Below, piece after piece: positions 9,816 through 30,204 of a stretch of DNA of 64,000 nt (position 1 is the first letter of the stretch; each line of letters opens with the position of its first letter). This stretch comes from Candidatus Latescibacterota bacterium (GTDB lineage Bacteria; Latescibacterota; UBA2968; GCA-2709665). The notes beneath the pieces are model-generated. The model was given only the letters and a program-made list of their open reading frames with translations, did not search any database and had not been told where the DNA came from. A program made the position numbers and the translations under genes. The DNA is taken from positions 2,805,718-2,869,717 of the forward strand of contig OZ241917.1 of NCBI GenBank assembly GCA_965203805.1, read 5' to 3'.

Positions 9816-10481
9816 ATGACGACGATGAGAACGACGGCACTGTTGTGTTTCCTGCTGCTGGCAACGCCGGCGATGATTTCCGCGGGCGAAATGGAAAGGC
9901 GATCCCGCATTGAACTCAGGATGGGCCTGCGAAATCACGGAGGAACGACCGGAGCGGCGACAACGGTCGGTCCACTGGGTGTTGAAGCGACTGCCGGATC
10001 GGGTGACGTATTCTTCTCGCTGGGCTATTCGCGCTGGATGCGGGAAGACGTGGCCGGTTATGCCGCGCTCGGGCTCATGTCCGTCGATGCGAGTTCACGG
10101 GTTGGGCTTTCGGGGGTCTCGCAGCGGTCGGCCGCCATTCTTCCGGTGATCGTGGGCATGAGATATTACCCGACCAGGCCAACAACCCGGACCCAGTTCA
10201 GGCCCTTTCTGACCGCGGGTGCAGGACCCGTCACCGGTTTTGAATCCGGGAGCGAAATCGGTTTGCAGGTGGTCCAGAAGACCGCCACAATGACGGCATT
10301 CGGGTGCCAGGCGGGCGCGGGGCTGGACGTTCGGATGGGAGGGTCCGTTGTGATGAATGGTACCCTCGGATACAACCTGATGACGGACTTCTCAGAGGCT
10401 GTAGGCGGCCGGCGCAACTACAGCGGACTCGAATTCGGCCTGGGATTTGGCTGGCAATTCGGCGGGATCGCGGAAAACTGA
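9816..10481 (+). CDS. outer-membrane beta-barrel protein
   Basis: Signal peptide (TALLCFLLLATPAMISA), alternating amphipathic strands, and an aromatic C-terminal strand (EFGLGFGWQFG). Confidence 0.7.
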   Translation: MTTMRTTALLCFLLLATPAMISAGEMERRSRIELRMGLRNHGGTTGAATTVGPLGVEATAGSGDVFFSLGYSRWMREDVAGYAALGLMSVDASSRVGLSGVSQRSAAILPVIVGMRYYPTRPTTRTQFRPFLTAGAGPVTGFESGSEIGLQVVQKTATMTAFGCQAGAGLDVRMGGSVVMNGTLGYNLMTDFSEAVGGRRNYSGLEFGLGFGWQFGGIAEN

Positions 10482-14646: not shown

Positions 14647-16743
14647 TTATTCTTCTTCAGGCCCCAGACGGACGAATTCCCTCGGATTCGAGAGGTTCTG
14701 ATACGTGGCATTGATCCACTGATGTGATCTGGCCGTCGTCGAGATTCGGACCTCATTGATTTCGCCCTGGAACGGCGCCCCGCCGCCCGCGAGCCGGCCG
14801 ATGCTGGTCGGAGTCTGGCTGGACCGGACGGCGCCGGCTGCTTCGACCGAGTCCACGGGCGCGCCGTCAATATAGAGCGTCGTCCGTTCGCCGTCGTATA
14901 CGCCCGACAGATGATGCCGGCCGGGGGTCAGCGTCCTGTTGGCGCGCACGCTCCGGGTGCCGTTTTCCGTATTGATGGTGAAGGTCGGACCCGGCAGCGA
15001 GGCGCAAAGCCCGCCGTTGTGCCCGCATTCGGCATATTTGAGCGCGAAAGAGGCCTCGTCCGCGGTATCGTAGCGCAACACCTTTCCATGGGGCGTGTAT
15101 TCGCGGTCGTCGTTTTCATCCGGGTCTTCGCGCCACGGGGAGAAATACACGTAGCGTCCGTCGAACGCGCCGCCATTGAACCCGCCGGGATTCGGCGGAT
15201 AGGTGAAGACGCCACCGTCGGCGGCATCCCACGCGGCCCTGTCGGTGAAATTCATGCAGGTGTTGTAGCGCAGGACGCGACAGTGGAATCCCCGCTGAGG
15301 CTCGTCGCCCTCGTAGAACGGAATGTAGTAGACGTACTGGCCGTCGAAGGCCGCGCCGTCGTAGCCTTTTGTGTGCAGGCCGGACGTTCCGGCCGCGTTG
15401 TACGCCTCCCAGCTTTCCGGTTCCTTGAAGTCGCCGCGGGTATCGTATCTGACGGCGTTGCTGTGAGCGTAAGGGACGTAGTAGACATAGCGGCCGTCGA
15501 AAACGGCGCCCACGCACATTCCCATGCCGTGACTGCTGGCATCCAGCGCCTGCCATGCGGCCGGATCGTCGAACCCGCCGCGGGTATCGTGACGGAGCAC
15601 GATGCCGCGGTCGTTGAGCGGCGAATAATAGACGTAACGTCCGTCGAAGGTGGCGCCGTCGTAGTTCTTCGACTCCAGTCCGTCGGTATTCCCGGCATCG
15701 TAAACCGCATAGCTCTCCGAATCCGTGAAACCGCCCCGCGTATCGAAACGGACGGCTTTTCCCGTTTCGCCGGAATCACCCTCATATCCGGGCGACAGGT
15801 AGATATATCGACCGTCGTACGCGGCGCTCTGGCAGGCCATCGTCCTCCCGATGTCGTACGCCTTCCAGCTTCCGGGATCACGGAATGCCCCTTCCCGGTT
15901 ATATCGCAGGATGCGGCTGTGCAGGTTCTCGCCATCGGTACGCGGGACAAAGTAGATGTGGTTCCCGGCGTGCACGACGCCGTAGTACCCCTTCGTGTTC
16001 AGGCCGTCCGTGCAGCCCGCGTCGTATCCTTCCCAGCTGGCGGGATCGTCGAACGCTCCCCAGGAGTCGTATCGCAGGACCTGGCCGTGACGGTCCTGCG
16101 ATGCGTTGAGTTGCGGTGCGAAGTACACGTAGCGTCCGTCCGAGACGGCGCCGAAATAACCCCTGGTGTCCAGGCCGTCCGTGTTCCCGGCGTCGTAGGA
16201 CTCGAACCGGTCCATTACCGGTCGCAGCGACCACCTGGACACCAGCACCTGAAAGGCGTCGGAATTCGACTGCTCGCTGTCGATCCAGGCCTCCACGGTG
16301 AGGGCCCGGGCACCGTCGAGCGACTCGGTGCGCGCATCTGTGCTCTGGTGGCGGACCAGTTTGAAATGCGGGTCCCATACACTAGCCGGAGATGAAACCG
16401 GTCCTCCGCCATAACAAAGGTAGAGGCTTTGGGCCCCGGTAAAAGAAGGAATTCTGACCCGCGCCCCGAGAGCGCCGCTTTCGGGATCGTAGGACTCGAT
16501 ACGGTATGGCAGCGCATCGCCTCCGAGCGAGACAAAGTGGATGTCGCCGCCGTCGTCTCCACGAACACGCCCGCCGTTGTCGGCGGATTTGAGTCCATCG
16601 TCGCGCAGGACGACCAGAAGCGGGAAATCCTGAAGATTTCCGACGTCTCCGGCCGGGTTGATGGTGAGTTTTCTGCGGATGGGTTTGCCGGTCTCTTCCA
16701 TTGTATCCTCTCCTGGTCGACGCTGAATCTGTGTTTTGCTCAT
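14647..16743 (-). CDS. DUF2341-like N-terminal domain, about seven 50-60-aa propeller-like repeats, C-terminal LamG/ConA-like domain protein
   Basis: N-terminus FPLLVVLRDDGL..DIHFVS..LPYRIESYD. Repeats have the consensus YDxxxTDGLxTKGYxGAxFDGRYVYFxP..VLRYD. C-terminus HHLSGVYDGERTTLYIDG..FQGEINEVRIS..ARS..WI..YQN. Confidence 0.8.
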   Translation of the reverse strand: MSKTQIQRRPGEDTMEETGKPIRRKLTINPAGDVGNLQDFPLLVVLRDDGLKSADNGGRVRGDDGGDIHFVSLGGDALPYRIESYDPESGALGARVRIPSFTGAQSLYLCYGGGPVSSPASVWDPHFKLVRHQSTDARTESLDGARALTVEAWIDSEQSNSDAFQVLVSRWSLRPVMDRFESYDAGNTDGLDTRGYFGAVSDGRYVYFAPQLNASQDRHGQVLRYDSWGAFDDPASWEGYDAGCTDGLNTKGYYGVVHAGNHIYFVPRTDGENLHSRILRYNREGAFRDPGSWKAYDIGRTMACQSAAYDGRYIYLSPGYEGDSGETGKAVRFDTRGGFTDSESYAVYDAGNTDGLESKNYDGATFDGRYVYYSPLNDRGIVLRHDTRGGFDDPAAWQALDASSHGMGMCVGAVFDGRYVYYVPYAHSNAVRYDTRGDFKEPESWEAYNAAGTSGLHTKGYDGAAFDGQYVYYIPFYEGDEPQRGFHCRVLRYNTCMNFTDRAAWDAADGGVFTYPPNPGGFNGGAFDGRYVYFSPWREDPDENDDREYTPHGKVLRYDTADEASFALKYAECGHNGGLCASLPGPTFTINTENGTRSVRANRTLTPGRHHLSGVYDGERTTLYIDGAPVDSVEAAGAVRSSQTPTSIGRLAGGGAPFQGEINEVRISTTARSHQWINATYQNLSNPREFVRLGPEEE

Positions 16744-16860: not shown

Positions 16861-17229
16861 TTATAGATTCAGCGTATGACGGAGAGCCGCATCAACTTTG
16901 GCCATTGGAAGCGATCCAATGACGCGGTCAATTGCCGATTCCACAATTGTGGCAAGATTGTCAGCCATAACTACAGAATCTGTGAGTAGACCCGATTGTT
17001 GTCCTTCGGGGGTGGAAAGTAGAATGGCAACACGGCTCGAGTGATTGGCGCGAAACATCCTGCTGGTAATCATCGCCACGACCACTTGGGATAAACCAGT
17101 CTGAAGATTATCAGATTGAACGATTAATCCCGGACGTGGCTTGGCTGTAAGCAAGTTAGAATCCGGAAAGAGCACTAAGACGACGTCACCGCGACTATAG
17201 GTTGGATTTGGCTGCGTCATAGTTGTCAT
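16861..17229 (-). CDS. MazF/PemK-family type II toxin (endoribonuclease)
   Basis: N-terminal YSRGDVVLVLFP...KPRPGLIVQSD pattern typical of PemK/MazF. It overlaps the upstream antitoxin ORF. Confidence 0.8.
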   Translation of the reverse strand: MTTMTQPNPTYSRGDVVLVLFPDSNLLTAKPRPGLIVQSDNLQTGLSQVVVAMITSRMFRANHSSRVAILLSTPEGQQSGLLTDSVVMADNLATIVESAIDRVIGSLPMAKVDAALRHTLNL

Positions 17230-17455
17230 AAATACTCATTTCCGGGCTTTCCCAGTCTTCGGCAAAGGCCGTCAGGCGTTCGCGCAAATCTGCCGCCTGC
17301 GCCTTGTCAATACCGCGTCCTCGTAAATCGATAGAATGTGTTGGCAGAAATGTGACAATGACGGGCGTATCTTCATGTATATCGCTGGGTAATTCCGGAA
17401 GTTCAATCTTACCGCCGCGATACACTCCTTCAATCGTCGTGAGCATGGGGATCAC
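17195..17455 (-). CDS. type II antitoxin, DUF104/AF2212-like N-terminus
   Basis: The TIEGVYRGGKIELPELPSDIHEDTPVIVTFL pattern, an acidic C-terminal tail, and a position immediately upstream of and overlapping the MazF gene. Confidence 0.65.
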   Translation of the reverse strand: MIPMLTTIEGVYRGGKIELPELPSDIHEDTPVIVTFLPTHSIDLRGRGIDKAQAADLRERLTAFAEDWESPEMSIYDNYDAAKSNL

Positions 17456-17582: not shown

Positions 17583-18206
17583 TCAAAACGCTTCGTTTGA
17601 AACCAACTTCTTGTAGAAATGCGCCTCCACAGTCTTCAGGCGTGACTGATAAATCGATTTTTCGGTTGGTCCGGTTGAATCAAACACCCGAACAAAAAAG
17701 CGGCATTTTTTCGACTTAGACCTCTCAAACAAGTTGGATGTTGCCGAAAGAAAAGACGCTTCCGAGATGTCCTGATTCATCACAATATTCTGCAATTTCA
17801 GTGCCCGCCGTTCCTCTCTCCGGTGAGGTAGGCCAGTCTCCCTAACGACCAGTCCCTTAGGGGTGAGATTTATGTCGAAAATGTACTCAATGGATTCATC
17901 GTCCCGAACCCAGCAGGACGGAACTTCGGTCCCTTTACCTGCTGATATGGGGCCCTCATGCTCCCGCGCTATCCGCAGAGCATCCCTTACAGAATCGGGA
18001 TCTGGCGAAAATCCGTGCTCTTGCGCGGCTTCCCGAAATTCTTCAAGCCGTTGCCTTGCCTCTTGGTTTTGCACAACCATCAATTGGTTTTGCACAACCA
18101 TCAATATGAGAAGAAACATCGCAAGAATAAAAATAGATGTGATCAGATCCGTAAAAGACGGCCATACATTGAGTGAGGTATCCCTACGAGTTCGTCTCTT
18201 ATTCAT
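17583..18206 (-). CDS. MotB/ExbD/ZorB-like stator subunit: single TM helix with a conserved Asp, and no recognisable OmpA-type peptidoglycan-binding domain
   Basis: Basic N-terminus followed by VWPSFTDLITSIFILAMFLLIL (compare the MotB and ExbD/TolR TM-Asp motif). The start lies 16 nt after the MotA-like gene. Confidence 0.65.
   Translation of the reverse strand: MNKRRTRRDTSLNVWPSFTDLITSIFILAMFLLILMVVQNQLMVVQNQEARQRLEEFREAAQEHGFSPDPDSVRDALRIAREHEGPISAGKGTEVPSCWVRDDESIEYIFDINLTPKGLVVRETGLPHRREERRALKLQNIVMNQDISEASFLSATSNLFERSKSKKCRFFVRVFDSTGPTEKSIYQSRLKTVEAHFYKKLVSNEAF
18064..18105 (-). repeat. perfect 2 x 21-nt in-frame tandem duplication (MVVQNQL/MVVQNQE)
   Basis: TGGTTTTGCACAACCATCAAT occurs at 18064-18084 and again, identically, at 18085-18105. 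Confidence 0.95.
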
Positions 18207-18222
18207 TGCCAGATACCTACCA

Positions 18223-20052
18223 TCAGAAGAAACGCTTCAGTTTGTCCATAAAACTTAACTTTGGCGGACGGTCATCCCTGCGTTTAAGTGCATCAGCCAT
18301 ATCGCTAAGTGTGCCCTCCATAGCCTTTACAGACGCCACAATCTGTTTTTGCTCGCCGACGACTTTGGGAAGATTACTCAGCGTTTGAATGACACCTTTC
18401 AAATTTCCAACAAGTGTCTGATCCAGACGCTCAATGGCACTTTCCACGTCCGAAAGGCCCGTGCGTAGCGTGCCCACCTTTTCATCCAAGTCGGTGTTGT
18501 CTCTATCGCTAAATTCCTGCTGAAGCTTCAGCAGAGCTTGTTCTGTGGCGTGAATGGCGTCCAGTTGCGCCTTGATGTTGTCAAAAACGGGTTTGTACGT
18601 TGGCTCATCGGGGTTGAGTTTTTGAATCAACTGATATGTTTCCTCCATTGTCAAGCCCAAGGTATTCATTCTTGCATAAAAGCCATCCATCATTTTATCG
18701 ACTGCGGATTTCAACTCTTCCAACGGCTCACTGAGCCTGGTAAAATTAGAAATGTGTTTCACAAAATTCTCGCCCGACTTACGTATATCATCGGCTCCAG
18801 AGTTGAGCGCATCGCAAGCAGTGTTGAGGGTGTCCAAAAGCGGTTTGAGCGCGACTTTGAGATGGTCTGAATGATCTTTGAGTGTCTTTATGAGAAGGTC
18901 CGCTTGCTCTGCCATCAATGCCGAATGTCGATACGAGAAATCCTCAAGTGTGCTGCTCCATTTCTCACTCACTTGCTCGTTGGAGGCACTCGCTTTTTTT
19001 AGCGTATCACTGGCGTCGTTAAGCGTTTTCAAAAAAGGGACAAAGGATGTCGAGACCTTTTCAAAATGCGCTTCGAGTGCTCTTTCTATAGAGTCTGCCT
19101 GACTTGCCATCAATGCGGAATGTCGATGCGAGAAATCCTCAAGTGTGCTGCTCCATTTCTCACTCACTTGCTCGTTGGAGGCACTCGCCTTGTTGAGCAT
19201 GTCACTGGTGTTGTTGAGAGTTTGCAGAAAAGGCCCAAATGAAGCCGATACCTTCTCAAAATGTGCTTCAAGTGTGGTTTTGAGATAGTCTGTCTGATCC
19301 GTCATAAATTCCGAATGTCTATCTGCAAGACCTTTAAAAGCTTCTTGAACCGCCTCTTTCAGATCCACCTCAGGCAAAAACAATCTGAATTTGGGGGCGA
19401 TTTCTTCATTGCAATAGGTTTCTATCTCGGCAATCAATACAAGCCTTTTCTTGCTGAGAATTAGGAAACAGATAGTCAATACAATCATGCAACCTAACCC
19501 AGCGATGCTGGTTATAAAGGCAAACTCCATCCCAGAGAACGACTTGACGATATTTTTTAGCATATCCGGCAGGCTTTGTGTTGCATTGTCTCCGGTATTT
19601 TGGATAATGCTTTCAATCGGTCGGATGACTTGGTAAAGCCCGATAAATGTCCCGAGAAGACCCAATACGATCAAACTCACGCTCGTTGTGCGAATCGCTT
19701 CGTCATTTCCGCAAAGATCTTCCTCTTCTCTCTGTACCATTTCATCAACGACTGGTGGTTTATTTTGCCGAAACCCCGCCCAGAGCAACTTCAGCCATTG
19801 TTGTGTTTTCGGATTCGAAGTAGAATCCGAGGGTGCATTTGCTGCTCTGCTGGCAATAAATCCTTGATGATTTTTTTCCCAACTTTCCAAGTCTGCAAGT
19901 GCATTTCTCGATCTGGTTATCTTGCGCCACATTTTTGCTAAAAACCAAAGGCCCAAGCAAAAAAATATGCCCATAACGAGCAACCAAATTACCAAAAAAT
20001 TCGATGGATTCGACCCAAAAAATAAATCTGACATATTGGTAAATTTCCTCAT
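18223..20052 (-). CDS. MotA/TolQ/ExbB-family proton-channel protein with a helical C-terminal tail of about 400 aa (ZorA-like)
   Basis: Three TM segments. Family hallmark motifs are VLGLLGTFIGL (compare GLLGTVxG) and AFITSIAGLGCMIV (compare AxxTTxxGL). The long helical tail has about 65-aa repeats. ATGA start/stop overlap with the upstream gene. Confidence 0.8.
   Translation of the reverse strand: MRKFTNMSDLFFGSNPSNFLVIWLLVMGIFFCLGLWFLAKMWRKITRSRNALADLESWEKNHQGFIASRAANAPSDSTSNPKTQQWLKLLWAGFRQNKPPVVDEMVQREEEDLCGNDEAIRTTSVSLIVLGLLGTFIGLYQVIRPIESIIQNTGDNATQSLPDMLKNIVKSFSGMEFAFITSIAGLGCMIVLTICFLILSKKRLVLIAEIETYCNEEIAPKFRLFLPEVDLKEAVQEAFKGLADRHSEFMTDQTDYLKTTLEAHFEKVSASFGPFLQTLNNTSDMLNKASASNEQVSEKWSSTLEDFSHRHSALMASQADSIERALEAHFEKVSTSFVPFLKTLNDASDTLKKASASNEQVSEKWSSTLEDFSYRHSALMAEQADLLIKTLKDHSDHLKVALKPLLDTLNTACDALNSGADDIRKSGENFVKHISNFTRLSEPLEELKSAVDKMMDGFYARMNTLGLTMEETYQLIQKLNPDEPTYKPVFDNIKAQLDAIHATEQALLKLQQEFSDRDNTDLDEKVGTLRTGLSDVESAIERLDQTLVGNLKGVIQTLSNLPKVVGEQKQIVASVKAMEGTLSDMADALKRRDDRPPKLSFMDKLKRFF
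18700..19330 (-). repeat. three tandem units of about 195 nt (65 aa) inside the ZorA-like tail
   Basis: An 84-nt core at 18911-18994 recurs at 19106-19189 with only 2 mismatches. The protein units are ..LEAHFEKVS(A/T)SF.PFL(Q/K)TLN..SD.L.KASASNEQVSEKWSSTLEDFS.., and the third unit is degenerate. Confidence 0.85.
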
Positions 20053-20948
20053 CCAGCAATGATCACTTTTGCTTTGAGATCTATCTCATCGGTTTGTGAA
20101 TTCTTAAGCCCATGCGCCAAGCACCTTACAATTCGGTCCCGGGGTTGTGTCCCGCTTGTATCCTGACTGGCAATTTGAAATCGGCGCCTGTCAAAAGAAT
20201 CCCCTGGACGCGCTCCAATTATCTCTACTTCATCCCCTCCCAAATCCATCATCAGATCAAAAACACGCTGCGCGTCCTCCTGTCGATTCTGTGTTACTCG
20301 ACTGTCGATTTCGGGTAAGAAGTATCGAATCATCTGTGCGGGACGGGTACGGCGTAGAAGGCTTTCTATTGAAGACGCATTGAAAACTTCCTCACCTATA
20401 AGAGCACCTTTGAGCCAAAGAACCGGATCATCTGAATCATCTTGCATTTCGCGCAACGTCAACAGATCCTGTATTTGTTTTAATGGCTTCTCAACCTCCC
20501 GATCAACATATACAGCGAAAGATGCACGGTCATCCTGCGACATCGCGCTCTTTATTTCCTCTAAAGCCGACCGAAACTGCCTCAAATACGTTACACGGTC
20601 TTTCAATTCGCGCCAATTTTCTTCATCCAAATCATCTGAAAAGCTACCTACACTTTCTCTTATTCTTCTCTTCAACAATTTTATCCATTCAATATCTTCT
20701 TTATTCTGACCATTTTCCAAATCTTTGATGTTTTCTACTTCTGTACGGAGATTTGAAACGTGGGTCGCATAAACCTGTACCCGGTCCGACACTATAGCCT
20801 TCACGTCTTCACTTGCTTCTGATCGGGATTTTAAAACCTGCTTTCTTAACCATATAACAGACAAGAGTGCTATTAGAGAAATAATGAATGAAATGACATT
20901 CAACAATGAATCAAATTCCTTAAACATCAAGCTACCTCCAAGAAGCAT
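20049..20948 (-). CDS. membrane-anchored coiled-coil protein with a GrpE-like C-terminal domain (putative nucleotide-exchange factor for the adjacent Hsp70)
   Basis: N-terminal TM segment (LLNVISFIISLIALLSVIWL) and a long charged helical region. The C-terminus EVEIIGARPGDSFDRRRFQIASQD...IVRCLAHGLKN...LKAKVIIAG follows the GrpE pattern G..FDP..H.A....V...GY....lRpA.V.V. TAATG stop/start overlap with the Hsp70 gene (20946-20950). The longer ORF reaches 20990. Confidence 0.55.
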   Translation of the reverse strand: MLLGGSLMFKEFDSLLNVISFIISLIALLSVIWLRKQVLKSRSEASEDVKAIVSDRVQVYATHVSNLRTEVENIKDLENGQNKEDIEWIKLLKRRIRESVGSFSDDLDEENWRELKDRVTYLRQFRSALEEIKSAMSQDDRASFAVYVDREVEKPLKQIQDLLTLREMQDDSDDPVLWLKGALIGEEVFNASSIESLLRRTRPAQMIRYFLPEIDSRVTQNRQEDAQRVFDLMMDLGGDEVEIIGARPGDSFDRRRFQIASQDTSGTQPRDRIVRCLAHGLKNSQTDEIDLKAKVIIAG

Positions 20949-23900
20949 TATGTGTAGGAAAAGTTCATACACCTTCGATGTGCTTCCCATACGTATTCAA
21001 AATCACTGCCATCTTTTTCATTGCCAACCCGATAGTTATACAAAAGGTCCGCTTTCCCCGCTACATCACATTTCAGTTCCAGGCAGTAAGTCCAGAATTG
21101 TGCGTTTTGAAATACATCATCGTCTTTTGGCACAGTTAGATTGGCAACGACCCTATTTTCAGCCTGGGTTACTCTTGTGTTTAAGTCCCACCCAAAAAAC
21201 TCAACAAGCGCGATTCGGCTACTTGCCCTTTCTATTTCTATGATGAGGCCTGGGTTTTCCGGAGTGATGGTCGTATCTGGCTCCAACGGCGTCCAGCGAT
21301 CAAAAACGAGTACAAAATGGGTAAATGCACGCATGCAGATGGGATAATTTAATTTTCGTATCCCTTTTGGAGGCGAATAATAGAGATCGCTCAAACTCCT
21401 ACCATACTCAACAGCACCCAAAGCCACGCTTTTTTTCAGTTTTTCTGGTTCGAAAATGATCTCTTTCGCCTGTACTCTTTCTTTCGCAACCGTTTTTACG
21501 AGCGGGAGACGAGAGGTGTTTCCTTCCAAGATCAGATAATCTAACTGAGTATCGGCGATCTGATTCTTGTTGAACAGATAGTGCTGCATCTGATTGAGCT
21601 TATCAAAGCCTTTTTTCAGCTCCTCGCGGACAGAATTATAGATGTCGTTAATAGCTAAAGGTGCCATATCTGGAAGTAAGTTGTCATTCAAAAAACGCAG
21701 CGTGCCTTCTATACTCAGAGTGGCATTCTCAGGACTTTTACTCTTGAGAGAAACGCGTGGCCAATTATCGGGGATATTGGAGGATTCGATCAGATCTAAA
21801 ATGCCGTTCTCTCCACCATGAAGATGTTCAGCATAATCTTCGGGTTCCAGAGCCTCTCTAAGAAAAGACGTTATTCTATTGTTCTCCTTTATTGTTTCTG
21901 CTAATCCATAGAGTTGGGAGAAATTCTCCTCTTCGATTTTTTCCAGTGGTCTCAGTGCCTTATCCAATGTATCGGGAAAAGGGAATTGGGTTCTGTAAAC
22001 CTCAGGGACCATTTGAAAATACAGATATTGCGCGATTTTGAAAGACAGCAAGTCGCCACCCAGCGAAACATCTCCGTCAGAGGCGAGAATTTCAATGTCG
22101 GGTCGTCCATATTCTTGAGGGGTTAATCGTACAATTGAGATGTCCGTGGTCCCTCCTCCACAATCGAAGACGCCATAAACAATATCTCGACCAAGGTCCT
22201 GCTTGATAGCGATATCCAGTGCATAAGCAAGGGCGATGGCCTCCGGTTCACTAATCTCAAGAATAGGTTTGAGATTCATTCCCTGTGTCGCCCACGCAAT
22301 GGCTTTTCTCATTGACTCCTTTTGGCGATTAAAAACTGCGGGATAAGTAAAAACGGCTTCTGAGGGCACATAACCCGTATTTTCTTGGAAACTCTCCAAT
22401 AAGAAACGGATGTAAAGCCCTACCTTTTCAATCGCACCAACTTCAATATATCTATTGCCCTGGGTATAAATTCTTCCATTTAAGCTGAGGCTCCCTGTAC
22501 CCAAATCATTATAAATAATCTGTTCGTGGGGCGTTCTCAAGGTGCGCTTAAAACCCCAAGAAATTGATGAGATATGTTCAGAATGAAACCGCAGGTCTTT
22601 AAGTGTATGACCAAATTTGACAAGGGCTTCTTTTTCCTTCAAAACAGTCCGCCTTACGTCAGCCCCCGGCTCTTGTAAAACTTCCAAAAGATCATCGGGG
22701 TTTTTAATCGCCAAAAACTGAAACACAGTGGGTATTTCCGAGCCCATTTCCGAGACATCTTCGCCAAGGTCTATTTCCAGTAGTTCCTCTTTGTCTTGGG
22801 CGTCCTGATCTATATATGCGATACACGAGTTCGTGGTACCGAAATCTACTGCAATAGGAGAATCCAGAAGCTGAGGAGGTCGGATTTGAACGGGAAGAGA
22901 GATGGATTGATGGAACGTTTCGCCTTCGCCAACGGTAGCTCCGTGAATGACCAGAGTTGCCTTATCAGTGGTGTTCTCCTCAACTGTCGGAAGTGTGTCT
23001 TGATTGAGAATCAGGTCAATTGGAGAACTCGAATTATCTATAAGAATTGGCTCCTGATCTGTAATTTGAATTCTTGTATTGAGCCAAGGCTGATTTGATT
23101 CAACCCGAGTAATTCGAAGTGGTGGACCACTTAAGTGCTTTACCGTTACGGTAAAGCTCATCTTTTTGTTTCCTCCAGATACAAGTGCCTGCTCGTTGAC
23201 AAATTGACGGCTGAACTTCCACTCAATCTTTGGCTTATTAACATAGCGCAACAACAACCTGAATGTTATCTCGCCCAAACTGTCAAAAGGGAAATTTAAA
23301 ATAGCAGGGCAAGTCTCTTCAAAGTCCCGTCGCCGAGTGAGACTAAATCTAAATGGATGCTCAGGAGAAAGTTTATCGGGAAATTCCTGGTCCGGCGGTA
23401 AGTCAAAATGACCTTTGCCTTCAGACAGGAAAGGCGCGGCCTGAAGCCTCAGCGGAGAATCGTGATGAACCGTAAGGGTGACCCGTCCGTCGTCAGGGTC
23501 TATTGCGCAGGGCTGATATTCGACTGTGTCGTGTTTAAACTCGTGCTCATCTGGTGAAACAAGCCAAATCTCCGGTGCTTTCTCGCATCGAACAAAAAAA
23601 ACAACAGGTTTAATTGACGAAAGTGATGAAAGCAATTCTAATCGCCCGATATTGCGCTCATGTGCATTATGCGAACAACGGAGTTCTACACTTTCATCGG
23701 TATCAAGTCTATACGGTAGATCAATATCTCCGTGCCGTTGGGTGATTCCGAAGCCCTGAGCCTTTAATTCACGAATTTCTATGGGATTGACGCCTTCGTT
23801 TTTAACCTTTAGCGTGATGGGTATACCAGAAAAAATCGTCCAGGGAGCACCCCTAAGGTCTTCGTCCGGATCTGGAGTGACTGTTATTCTAACTAACTGA

Positions 23901-27468: not shown

Positions 27469-28497
27469 TCAATTTTTCTGAGTCTGAATGCGTGTCATAA
27501 AAAACGTGATTACAAAGGCGACAACACCAACAAAGACACACGACCAGAACAAGGCACTTTCATAAGTGGTCTGCCAACCCAGCAGATAATCCAAATATCC
27601 ACTGAGATAAAAGATGATCGTCAACGCACTCCCCACAACTGTAATCACAGCCGAACGCGCAAAAGCATGCGCGGGATGTCGCTCCCGATTTTTTATTTGG
27701 ACCGTAAAAATCACATATGTGGAGAATAAGTAAATTCCGATAATGATGATCGCCAGCAAAGCCCACATTAGAGAACCAGAAAAAATAGACGGTCTGGATG
27801 CCGACATATAAGCAGGAGGCTCCATACCTGGAACAACCTTGTCCTCATAATCCGATTTGCCCAATAAGGGTCTGGCTTCATCTATTGCCACAGCGTAATT
27901 GAGATTCTGGGCACGTCTGGCGGTGTCCTGTTTGGTAAATGTTACAATGCCTACTACCTCTCCTTGTTCATTGAACAACGGCCCTCCGCTATTACCCGGT
28001 GAGACGGGTGCCGTGGTCTGGACAACCTTGTATCCATCCTGATTTCGTATCTGCGAAATGATGCCATCGGTGACAGAAAACTCCTCGCCTAAGGGATTTC
28101 CGATCACGACCACAGGGTCGCCGGGTTTTACTCCTGCCACTGTCCCAAGACGCGCCTGGTGAAGGGTCTGTCCACCCAGATCGGCCTTCACAAGCGCGAG
28201 ATCTTTGTGCTCATCTTTTGCCACAATTGCCACGATAGGCATCCATTCGGCTCCCTGTACGCGCACCCATCCTTCTCGAATACCCTTGATCACATGCCAG
28301 TTGGTCAGAAAATAGCCTTTTGCACCATCAATAGATACTCCCGACCCCTGACTCTTTGCGCCATCTGTTTCAATTACCACGAAGGCGACAGCAGGACCTT
28401 CTTCCTCAGCAATCCGCGAAGCAGTGTTATTGCTCGTCCCCCCACAACCCCACAGGACCAATAAAAAACCTATACGCGCAAGATGTGATGTCATCAC
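27469..28497 (-). CDS. trypsin-like (S1C/Trypsin_2) serine protease, predicted lipoprotein with a C-terminal 3-TM anchor
   Basis: Lipobox-like LLVLWGC. Catalytic triad contexts are TNWHV (His), KDLALV (Asp) and GNSGGPLF (Ser). Three hydrophobic helices occupy the last 110 aa or so. Confidence 0.85.
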   Translation of the reverse strand: MMTSHLARIGFLLVLWGCGGTSNNTASRIAEEEGPAVAFVVIETDGAKSQGSGVSIDGAKGYFLTNWHVIKGIREGWVRVQGAEWMPIVAIVAKDEHKDLALVKADLGGQTLHQARLGTVAGVKPGDPVVVIGNPLGEEFSVTDGIISQIRNQDGYKVVQTTAPVSPGNSGGPLFNEQGEVVGIVTFTKQDTARRAQNLNYAVAIDEARPLLGKSDYEDKVVPGMEPPAYMSASRPSIFSGSLMWALLAIIIIGIYLFSTYVIFTVQIKNRERHPAHAFARSAVITVVGSALTIIFYLSGYLDYLLGWQTTYESALFWSCVFVGVVAFVITFFMTRIQTQKN

Positions 28498-28509: not shown

Positions 28510-30204
28510 TCAAAATCGTGCAGCCAAACGTTCAACCTTCATCGACATATCGCCCTTCTTTAATATCAGAGCTTTATAAGGCTCTAACAAAAGCTTGATA
28601 TTTCTTGGCTGTTCTTCTACCTCCGACTCCAAGTCTTTCGACATATCATTACCCAAAGTATCTTCCACTATGACGTCCTCATCTGGACGGAAAGCGAACT
28701 GAAAAATAGCATCTCGCTTGATGTGTCCCAAACTGATTTCGTCGCCTGCGGCATTTGTTATTTTCAAATCAACCTGCTTGCTCGCGGGCCCCAATCGAAG
28801 CCGTTCCGTGTGTTCCTGAACTTGATTCAGGCTGTCTGTAACCCGATATTTCAACGGATAGTACATTATCCAAGCGATCATAGCAATCAAGATTATCAAG
28901 CCAACAAGGAGTGCGACCCAGGCGATCCAGGGACCTTTAAGGGGTGTGATTTGCAATTCGCCAGAAATCGTACCACCTATCGGCACGACAGTTGCAGGCT
29001 GTTGATGGAGGTACTGGATAATATCAGTAGGCGTATAGATGCGGTTCAACACACCCGGCTGGTCGGTGAAGTACCGCGCTTTGTAAGCCTCTGTCATGCG
29101 AAACGAATTAGGCGGAATTTCTATAGACACAGCGAAATAATAGTCCGCTGGCACAGGGCCAATACGGACGAGGCTCAAGTAGTCCCAGAAATTTCGATGG
29201 TCTGGATAAAAAGGGCCAAAGTGTACCAGGCAGGTATAGACAGAGGTATGTTGGGTCGCAGACATAAGTGTATCTACGAGTGCTGGGGGGCTTACCCGAC
29301 CGTAGTGATACGATCTACGGCCTAACAAAATGCGATCCTGCACCTTGCGGGCGTATACCTGCGGAGGTTGGACTTTAAACTCCGATCCTGCAGGTTCAAT
29401 GTTAATGTGGCTGAGTCGTGATTGTAGTGTAAAATTAAAACGCAGTCGGCTTTTTTCACTAATTTCCGCAACGATTGGTCTGATCAACCCGGGAGCTAAA
29501 ATAATGGTATCATCAATCGGCTTCATCACCATCGGCTCCATTCCCTCGTTCTGCAAAACTGTGACGAGATGCTCAAATTGGGAGCGGAATTGTGGCTGCG
29601 TAAGCAACAGATAAAGGACAAAACCTTTCATTCCCCGGTAGTAGAGCCGACGATCAGGACGGATCCGGATTTCGGAATTGGGGTTCATGCTTTGCAGTTC
29701 GCTATGTCCTTTATGTGGGACGGGATTAGACAGAAGCCCTTCAAACATCCGCTTAAGAGGGATAGCCCGCAAAACTTTGATCGTATCGCGGTTAAAACAA
29801 GCATAAAGTGCTCTGGCGTCGAGATCGCTGGCTGCCTGAACATTGTCCGTGAGCATCATCACAATCGGCGCCCTGTCATATCCCGTATTAAATGCCGCCT
29901 CAAGATTGGTATATCCACCCCAGGTCTTTGTCTTTTGGAAACTCTCGGCACCCTGCCAGGCTACTGTATCTGGCCGGCTTGAAACAAAAAAAACTGTCTC
30001 TGAGGGAATGTCCTTCTGGTCGCACGCCTTTTTCAGGATATTGACCAGAATATTGAGTTCTTTACTGTTGTCGAAACCAGTCATCGAACCAGAGCCGTCA
30101 ATCTGTATGCTCACTCTTTGGGCATATACCGACGATGCTTGTGCGAACAATATGCCCAATATGATAATAAAATAGGCCACTGCCTTAGGCCTCTCTATCC
30201 CCAT
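28510..30204 (-). CDS. secreted vWA-domain protein with a C-proximal TM helix and a cytoplasmic tail of about 105 aa
   Basis: Signal peptide ending VYA-Q. MIDAS DGSGSM, GGYTNLEAAF and IVMMLTDN. TM segment PWIAWVALLVGLIILIAMIAWIMYY (nt about 28855-28935). 20-nt overlap with the upstream gene. Confidence 0.8.
   Translation of the reverse strand: MGIERPKAVAYFIIILGILFAQASSVYAQRVSIQIDGSGSMTGFDNSKELNILVNILKKACDQKDIPSETVFFVSSRPDTVAWQGAESFQKTKTWGGYTNLEAAFNTGYDRAPIVMMLTDNVQAASDLDARALYACFNRDTIKVLRAIPLKRMFEGLLSNPVPHKGHSELQSMNPNSEIRIRPDRRLYYRGMKGFVLYLLLTQPQFRSQFEHLVTVLQNEGMEPMVMKPIDDTIILAPGLIRPIVAEISEKSRLRFNFTLQSRLSHINIEPAGSEFKVQPPQVYARKVQDRILLGRRSYHYGRVSPPALVDTLMSATQHTSVYTCLVHFGPFYPDHRNFWDYLSLVRIGPVPADYYFAVSIEIPPNSFRMTEAYKARYFTDQPGVLNRIYTPTDIIQYLHQQPATVVPIGGTISGELQITPLKGPWIAWVALLVGLIILIAMIAWIMYYPLKYRVTDSLNQVQEHTERLRLGPASKQVDLKITNAAGDEISLGHIKRDAIFQFAFRPDEDVIVEDTLGNDMSKDLESEVEEQPRNIKLLLEPYKALILKKGDMSMKVERLAARF

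Follow-up and report, generated by a model that had tools for sequence, protein, structure and literature searches.

The locus described here raises the question of whether a ZorA-like channel protein with tandem repeats in its cytoplasmic tail belongs to a Zorya defence system, and of what a tail assembled in such a way might do. The gene lies on the minus strand of a stretch of 64,000 nucleotides (nt) from an uncultured Candidatus Latescibacterota bacterium (GenBank assembly GCA_965203805.1, contig OZ241917.1, positions 2,805,718 to 2,869,717 of the forward strand); this whole stretch is referred to below as the window, and its features are listed in Table 1. Judged by sequence and predicted fold, the protein constitutes an isolated family within the ZorA branch of the MotA/ExbB/TolQ superfamily, and the modularity of its tail is recurrent and family-wide. 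It is best described as ZorA-like rather than as a Zorya ZorA, and the gene cluster does not qualify as a Zorya system, because profile scores remain far below the curated cut-offs and no Zorya effector is encoded in the operon. We consider it moderately probable that the protein is part of a ZorAB-like ion-driven motor with a unit-built spacer tail, operating within a cluster of tubulin-like and Hsp70-like proteins.

The architecture of the motor domain is that of a channel A subunit. Hydropathy reveals three hydrophobic segments (approximately amino acids (aa) 17-41, 122-145 and 175-205), and the domain proceeds from the first transmembrane helix (TM1) through an ~80-aa cytoplasmic loop to TM2, which carries the motif GLLGTFIG (aa 131-138, including Thr135), and through a periplasmic loop to TM3, which carries ITSIAGLG (aa 180-187, including Thr181/Ser182). 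Both motifs are invariant in the family alignment, and the basic residues following TM1 and TM3 place the ~80-aa loop and the C-terminal ~400 aa in the cytoplasm. The MotA/ExbB hallmarks and the ZorA-like channel proposed in the initial annotation are borne out both by profiles and by fold. Pfam MotA_ExbB (PF01618) matches aa 102-211 with an E-value of 8.8e-5, a marginal score of 22.7 bits against a gathering score of 22.9. Eleven PADLOC profiles of ZorA match at E <= 1e-6, the best of them at 1.9e-13 (47.8 bits), with ZorA1 and ZorA3 at E 1e-13 and with some of the alignments spanning the TM region together with the tail. The sole channel families of NCBIfam matched by the protein are ZorA_1 to ZorA_4, with 41.3 bits for ZorA_1 (cut-off 190), 28.6 for ZorA_2 (100), 26.4 for ZorA_4 (500) and 25.5 for ZorA_3 (250). 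An AlphaFold monomer model built from 22 homologues is confident over aa 1-222 (predicted local distance difference test, pLDDT, 70-90), and all 50 of its best Foldseek matches in the PDB are ZorA, TolQ, ExbB or flagellar stator A subunits, the probability being 0.99-1.00 for 49 of them. The structure of ZorA 8VVN ranks first, followed by TolQ, ExbB and ZorA 8QYD/8QYY, with target TM-scores of 0.4-0.66.

Two smaller observations concern the same gene. The ATG at 20052 adds six residues (MRKFTN) that are found in no homologue, the family start being M[SFL]DLF; the true start, as judged from the alignment, is probably Met7 at 20034, giving a protein of 603 aa. In the family locus L005, a 21-nt x 2 duplication (10430-10472, IIQNTQD twice) is located in the periplasmic TM2-TM3 loop of the ZorA-like protein.

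The isolation of the family became evident when 1.84 billion representative proteins were searched without filters, with aa 1-235 as the query: only three proteins reached E <= 1e-10, one being the representative of the family itself and the others two relatives with 37-38% identity, and 168 reached E <= 1e-3. Among the 90 nearest representatives, 67 match PADLOC ZorA1 and 37 match NCBIfam ZorA_2. The TolQ, ExbB and MotA models of NCBIfam matched neither the ZorA-like protein nor any of these 90 representatives.

Downstream of the motor domain, Tandem Repeats Finder detects a period of 195 nt (1.9-2.1 copies, 82-87% matches) at 18910-19319, and a repeat search gives 81% nt identity between 18870-19064 and 19065-19259. 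At the protein level the array consists of two full 65-aa units and a diverged third one, which matches the unit over just its first ~45 residues. The initial description of a tail built from three tandem units of about 65 aa thus stands for two full copies and one degenerate copy and falls short for the tail as a whole, since the units, which build its proximal half, make up ~195 of its ~400 residues. The 84-nt cores of units 2 and 1 (18911-18994 and 19106-19189) are nearly identical, as had been noticed, differing at 3 of 84 positions rather than the 2 first counted, a figure reached if the last base is dropped. Inside these cores lies a perfectly identical run of 60 nt, for which P is ~1e-5 if the 37 differences are placed randomly over 195 nt.

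The age of this pattern can be read from the closest relative, locus L013 (Logan SRR13587047, an independent short-read assembly; protein P0002, 82% identical). The three-unit layout of the window is also present in L013 and in P0003, and 195-nt arrays are also found in L003, L004 and L005. Orthologous units 1, 2 and 3 of the window and L013 share 96%, 92% and 99% nt identity; the paralogous pair, units 1 and 2, matches at 81% of positions in the window and at 75% in L013. As the orthologous units are closer to each other than the paralogous ones, the duplication predates the split of the two lineages. The core tells a different story from its flanks. Between units 1 and 2 of the window, 35 of 129 flank nucleotides differ and 1 of 63 core nucleotides, and the corresponding counts in L013 are 38 of 129 and 9 of 63; unit 2 of the window departs from its L013 orthologue at 7 of 129 flank and 8 of 63 core positions, and its core differs from the unit 1 core of either genome at 1 of 63. 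These counts support the overwriting of ~60-85 nt of unit 2 by unit 1, through gene conversion, after the lineages had split. Of the recent partial duplication or gene conversion suggested at the outset, it is therefore the conversion that is recent, the duplication itself being old.

The same comparison bears on the suspicion that the repeat is an artefact of assembly, or that the gene is decaying. Apart from the general risk of repeat mis-assembly in metagenome-assembled genomes (MAGs), nothing more speaks for this explanation, whereas the open reading frame (ORF) is intact, copies of 81% identity are easily assembled, the same layout recurs in an independent short-read assembly and in P0003, and the orthologous units of the window and L013 are 92-99% identical. 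With the same array present in independent assemblies, the probability of an artefact or of decay is practically negligible.

Beyond the closest relatives, 45 homologues were found, with lengths of 516-633 aa when complete. A 65-column alignment gap corresponding to unit 2 is present in 33 of the 39 full-length homologues, the unit content estimated with a hidden Markov model (HMM) of the unit ranges from ~1.4 to ~2.9, and a 542-aa form contains no detectable DNA repeat. According to the tree of units, the extra unit arose several times independently. An older duplication is shared by P0001, P0002 and P0003; P0005 carries a very recent copy of unit 1 (95% nt identity between the copies, 93% matches in Tandem Repeats Finder); the sister proteins P0023 and P0024 contain copied units of different types, produced either by separate duplications or by one duplication followed by divergent conversion; and P0025 represents a further separate event. 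Other lineages lengthened the tail with different material: P0039 and P0041 have a 53-55-aa insertion of 23-32-aa repeats after an LNPDEP motif, and the 38% identical P0103 (L017, 11020-11414) has six copies of a 66-nt (22-aa) repeat, with a higher-order period of 198 nt, after an HIxNF motif. The gain and loss of units among homologues, anticipated from the single sequence, is hence observed directly. With tail length counted from the invariant IAPKF motif to the end of the protein (P0001-P0041, P0102 and P0103), the distribution is bimodal, with 32 tails of 317-349 aa, nine of 387-406 aa (P0103 included) and no values in between. The long class was reached through at least five different insertion histories, which is suggestive of two real length classes in a sample of few independent lineages.

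The predicted structure of the tail agrees with the expectation of an extended helix rather than a globular domain. In the AlphaFold monomer the ~400 aa are entirely helical, at low confidence, with helices at residues 231-354, 360-438, 441-476, 487-515, 522-559 and 561-589. The hydrophobic periodicity of ~3.56-3.62 is taken as consistency and not as proof, as a single unit resolves the period to ~±0.2 and the correspondence of 65 residues to whole turns is partly circular for repeated units. Among the 11 tail indels of up to 21 aa, seven comprise 7, 11 or 21 residues, a pattern typical of helical bundles that are sensitive to phase. The best-conserved parts of the protein are TM2 (0.88) and a distal tail module at aa 421-500 (0.84-0.90), the motifs of which are kept even in P0102 and P0103, which are 37-38% identical and both devoid of 65-aa units. 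Lying between the motor and this conserved module, the units look like a spacer.

The presumed B subunit is encoded immediately downstream, by a gene that starts 16 nt past the stop codon of the ZorA-like gene. This ZorB-like partner carries WPSFTDLITSIF, in which Asp20 is the counterpart of the essential aspartate of ZorB/MotB (PMC11946911), and its match to PADLOC ZorB1 (E 2.7e-5) is confined to aa 3-60. Partners in the other family loci (L001-L012, representing 10 distinct places) are 299-374 aa long and possess an OmpA-like domain with the pattern GHTD...N..LS..RA; OmpA-type partners also occur in L016 and L017. In tblastn comparisons the partners of the window and L013 are homologous to these proteins in the first 46-48 residues only, and the remaining ~160 aa of the chimeric partner correspond to another Latescibacterota family (P0049-P0087, up to 86% identity). 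The swapped-in domain (GKGTEVPSCW...CRFFVRVFD) has no Pfam match; its model reaches a pLDDT of 79.5 and finds no confident match in Foldseek, where ribosomal uS11-like folds lead and the ExbD periplasmic domain holds rank 24 (TM-score 0.60, probability 0.69). The perfect 21-nt tandem duplication at the domain-swap junction has four mismatches in L013 and is absent from P0047.

Table 1. Positions of the ZorA-like gene, its parts and the associated operon genes in the 64,000-nt window
Feature	Position	Strand	Supporting evidence
ZorA-like gene	18223..20052	minus	Single ORF, 609 aa; PADLOC, Pfam, Foldseek
Motor domain, aa 1-215	19408..20052	minus	Hydropathy, invariant alignment columns, AlphaFold pLDDT 70-90
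Tail unit 1, aa 245-309	19126..19320	minus	Unit HMM 147 bits; 96% nt identity to L013 unit 1
Tail unit 2, aa 310-374, the additional unit that most homologues lack	18931..19125	minus	Unit HMM 143 bits
Tail unit 3, aa 375-439, diverged	18736..18930	minus	Unit HMM 34 bits; 50% identical to units 1 and 2 at the nt level
60-nt run of unit 1, putative donor of the conversion	19129..19188	minus	Identical to 18934-18993
60-nt run in unit 2, converted side	18934..18993	minus	Identical to 19129-19188
Conserved distal tail module, aa 421-500 (GENFVKHISNFTRLSEPLEELK ... ETYQLIQKLNPDEPTYKPVFDNIKAQLDAIH)	18553..18792	minus	Conservation 0.84-0.90
ZorB-like partner, 207 aa, chimeric	17583..18206	minus	TM helix with Asp20, no OmpA domain
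Exact 21-nt tandem duplication encoding LMVVQNQ twice, at the domain-swap junction	18063..18104	minus	Repeat searches
Gene 1: zinc-ribbon protein, 415 aa	30185..31432	minus	N-terminal zinc ribbon
Gene 2: membrane protein, 564 aa, MIDAS-like DGSGS at aa 36	28510..30204	minus	Two hydrophobic segments; conserved in relatives
Gene 3: trypsin/HtrA-like serine protease	27469..28497	minus	Pfam Trypsin_2 E 1.5e-29; GNSGG; three C-terminal TM segments
Gene 4: tubulin-like FtsZl1, 1143 aa	24009..27440	minus	Pfam Tubulin_2 (PF13809) E 1.7e-66, aa 27-389; AGGTGSG, a signature of the GGGTG(S/T)G type, at aa 195
Gene 5: Hsp70-like ATPase with N-terminal zinc ribbon, 1016 aa	20948..23998	minus	Pfam HSP70 E 3.2e-14; DFGTT
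Gene 6: 313-aa protein, N-terminal TM helix, coiled coil and C-terminal domain	20049..20990	minus	

Eight closely spaced minus-strand genes make up the cluster, and the ZorA-like gene comes seventh. The 564-aa membrane protein encoded by the second of them is probably a divergent vWA protein, to judge from its MIDAS-like motif, and no vWA profile matched it even at E <= 1. The sixth gene product, of 265-313 aa across the family, is always encoded directly upstream of the ZorA-like gene; its start in the window is probably Met22 (MFKEF). A resemblance of its C-terminus to GrpE, seen by eye, was supported neither by Pfam at E <= 1 nor by the family profile against the PDB, and was dropped. L001-L005 all show this same arrangement between the gene for the 564-aa protein and that for the B subunit. 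Among the relatives of 37-38% identity, L017 retains the core set of genes (tubulin-like, Hsp70-like, ZorA-like and OmpA) and L016 a part of it. A PADLOC scan of all ten neighbouring proteins revealed no ZorC, ZorD, ZorE, ZorF or ZorG, no nucleases and no other effectors. GTPase profiles of Pfam and NCBIfam matched none of the operon proteins, Walker-A-like strings occurring just as isolated motif hits in the protease and the 415-aa protein, and scans for promoters and terminators near either end of the operon brought no useful result.

Taken together, these features suggest the following mechanism. The ZorA-like protein would be the A subunit of a ZorAB-like, ion-driven membrane motor of 5:2 stoichiometry, in which the three TM helices of the A subunits would surround the B-subunit helix with its essential aspartate, and the ~400-aa tail would project from TM3, presumably as a pentameric bundle. 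One 65-aa unit would contribute ~18 helical turns, or ~9.6 nm if the helix is continuous, so that the units may act as a spacer setting the reach between the motor and the module at aa 421-500, the likely docking site for other operon products. Such a spacer would grow by whole-unit tandem duplication followed by homogenising gene conversion, and the 60 nt of perfect identity left by the conversion tract could mediate further in-frame gain or loss of units. By analogy with Zorya, the motor most likely senses, or becomes energised at, the envelope, and a rotating or conformationally switching tail would pass its state to the membrane-proximal machinery of FtsZl1, the Hsp70-like protein and the protease. 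The length of the tail may be of functional importance here as well.

A number of observations weigh against this interpretation. All profile scores lie below the curated family cut-offs, far below in NCBIfam and just under in Pfam, and searches of PDB sequences with the protein and with the family profile recovered no ZorA, MotA or ExbB, yielding just weak matches to helical proteins, the best of which were a dystrophin spectrin repeat and the EsxA helical hairpin; the relationship is therefore shown by profiles and fold instead. The partner in the window is devoid of the peptidoglycan-binding domain needed by Zorya and flagellar motors. The tail has a pLDDT below 50 in the monomer model, as would be expected for a monomer taken from an oligomeric bundle. 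Each unit also contains a conserved proline (P274, P339 and P404), with three more in the distal module, and these prolines may indicate a kinked or hairpinned tail and not one straight helix.

The prolines lend some substance to another view of the tail, in which amphipathic helices punctuated by prolines form an array resembling apolipoproteins or spectrin, and bind membrane or lipid or fold into hairpins. The weak PDB matches point in this direction, as does the Pfam family Apolipoprotein (E 8.7e-7, at 29 bits against a cut-off of 90), and a periodicity near 3.6 would fit any amphipathic helix. Against this, PADLOC ZorA profiles align over the tail itself (aa 251-566), the AlphaFold helices of 124 and 79 residues run straight through all three unit prolines, the indels of 7, 11 and 21 residues are of the kind found in bundled coiled coils, and the architecture is otherwise that of ZorA. 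We regard an apolipoprotein-like tail as very improbable.

No covariation of tail length with the length of FtsZl1, the Hsp70-like protein or the 313-aa protein is seen in L001-L005, which again speaks against a tuned spacer and would suit a scenario in which unit number varies neutrally, helical tails simply tolerating in-phase insertions generated by slippage or unequal recombination. The variation of repeat types and positions between lineages (65 aa, 23-32 aa in P0039 and P0041, 22 aa in P0103) and the small number of independent lineages in the sample are also compatible with neutrality. Two discrete tail classes, the longer one attained repeatedly by separate routes, are less readily explained in this way, and in Zorya every ZorA tail truncation tested abolished defence (PMC11946911). 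On balance neutral variation seems rather unlikely.

The role of the whole cluster has to be judged from its distribution and surroundings. All family loci with an organism name come from Candidatus Latescibacterota MAGs, and one cluster is labelled Gemmatimonadetes. The distribution is patchy, the search patterns applied to 185,579 species genomes yielding seven loci, and no relative was found in the viral contigs and JGI metagenome contigs scanned. The neighbours downstream of the operon differ between genomes. In the window the ZorB-like gene is immediately followed by a pair of genes (16861-17455, minus strand), one for a MazF/PemK-family toxin (Pfam E 2.1e-14) and, overlapping it upstream, an 86-aa ORF for the likely antitoxin, and in L001 and L004 the operon adjoins a tyrosine recombinase. 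At the chromosomal site of the L001/L004 operon, L014 (GCA_965243005.1, 5846-8756) contains a different, OmpA-less ZorAB-like pair composed of a 445-aa ZorA-like protein (PADLOC ZorA2, 6e-11) and a 251-aa B-like protein, the latter being the donor type for the chimeric partner of the window. The site shared by L014, L001 and L004 is marked by an integrase, Big_5, a 129-aa gene, Peptidase_M10, NHL and UbiA; transposases and an SLFN/AlbA_2-HATPase gene are found near the L014 pair, and the site looks like a variable island. Further along the window, on the minus strand at 14647-16743, lies a gene for a 698-aa protein with Laminin_G_3 (E 2e-17) and a weak match to DUF2341 (E 0.003), a domain named in a 2025 mBio study of MotAB evolution among the uncharacterised domains worth study alongside stator homologues; no link of this protein to the operon is established.

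The patchy distribution, the differing downstream contexts, the recombinase and variable site, and the MazF neighbour make a role in conflict or defence plausible. Yet the support for defence drawn from the neighbouring MazF gene and from the integrase-adjacent variable site in relatives is circumstantial, and this too counts against the reading proposed above. The cluster could instead be a housekeeping machine for membrane remodelling or cytoskeletal functions, in which the motor anchors or powers FtsZl1 filaments and the tail sets the distance between filament and membrane. FtsZl1 operons with OmpA-like and membrane proteins, including a Deinococcus triad, have been described since 2010, relatives at 37-38% identity still keep the operon order, and the PADLOC scan of the ten neighbouring proteins detected no nuclease or classical defence effector. 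Against a housekeeping machine stand the patchy distribution, the changing downstream neighbours, the toxin gene next in the window, and the recombinase at a site where another genome holds a different ZorAB-like cassette. We consider the housekeeping alternative unlikely.

It is tempting to extend the motor with a spacer tail into a bolder proposal, in which the motor would be the envelope sensor or energiser of the tubulin-like/Hsp70-like machine, be it immune or remodelling, and the tail would be a quantised molecular ruler. This proposal is speculative and, in our estimation, distinctly doubtful. Were it true, length classes ~65 residues (18 turns, ~10 nm) apart, arrived at repeatedly through unrelated insertions, would imply selection for a fixed distance between motor and docking site, and in-frame recombination across the 60-nt conversion tract would allow populations to change from one tail length to the other. 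In Zorya the ZorA tail has been shown to be indispensable. The family offers natural tail-length variants among close relatives, differing by in-frame 65-residue modules, and thus a series for testing length. It also presents a module of a ZorAB-type motor and tail that is not tied to nuclease effectors but set among a tubulin-like GTPase, an Hsp70-like ATPase and a membrane protease, and the swapped domain of the B subunit suggests that the end by which such motors are anchored in the envelope can be exchanged as well.

Among known systems, TolQ, ExbB and MotA have in common with the ZorA-like protein the fold of the TM domain and the GLLGT motif of TM2, TolQ and ExbB falling within the TM-score range of 0.4-0.66 to the model; their A subunits are without a tail of several hundred residues. 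The closest precedent for the gene cluster is found in the FtsZl1 operons of Makarova and Koonin (2010), which contain vWA, GTPase and OmpA-like genes and for which membrane remodelling was proposed. In these operons, as here, a coiled-coil FtsZl1 stands beside genes of the MotA/TolQ/ExbB type and of the OmpA family. In the 2010 operons vWA genes are frequent partners; supplementary file 5 of that work lists Deinococcus radiodurans DR_0538 (FtsZl1), DR_0537 (MotA/TolQ/ExbB, 411 aa) and DR_0536 (OmpA). The main text mentions the OmpA-like component only, the MotA-like protein being listed in a supplementary table alone, and the two were not interpreted as a stator-like motor with a tail; the present finding joins these operons to the field of 5:2 motors. 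The Latescibacterota version differs in its Hsp70-like gene, its protease and its tail built from repeats.

A second precedent is provided by the GTPase-centred conflict systems with GAP1-N2 and DO-GTPase components proposed by Kaur, Burroughs, Iyer and Aravind (2020), which follow either tubulin or Hsp70 themes and combine tubulin homologues and coiled coils, Hsp70 ATPases, zinc ribbons, vWA and trypsin-like peptidases in a membrane-proximal setting. There the tubulin and Hsp70 themes are described as non-overlapping and MotA/ExbB components go unmentioned; DO-GTPase and GAP1 were not recognised in the operon by Pfam and motif scans, a set with no GAP1 profile among them. In the literature searched, no report was found of ZorA tails built from tandem units or of "ZorA-like" or "ZorAB-like" modules in other systems, and the string "MotA" in a Thoeris preprint turned out to be part of the word MoTad2.

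It is Zorya itself (E. coli type I, 8QYD; Shewanella, 8VVN) that provides the best sequence matches and the top Foldseek match, and that shares its general architecture with the window. In both, the A subunit has three TM helices, contains a ring of polar Thr/Ser residues and extends into a very long C-terminal helical tail, and the single TM helix of the B subunit carries an essential aspartate. The ZorA5B2 motor of Zorya is driven by protons, and its pentameric coiled-coil tail of ~70 nm recruits ZorC and ZorD (PMC11946911); in type II Zorya ZorE is recruited likewise (PMC11890865). In place of ZorC/D, ZorE or ZorF/G, the window encodes FtsZl1, Hsp70-like and trypsin-like proteins and a probable vWA protein, and the peptidoglycan-binding, OmpA-like domain of the partner is replaced in the window and in L013 by an unrelated domain. 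The tail, at ~400 aa, is shorter than that of Zorya and visibly built from recent tandem units.

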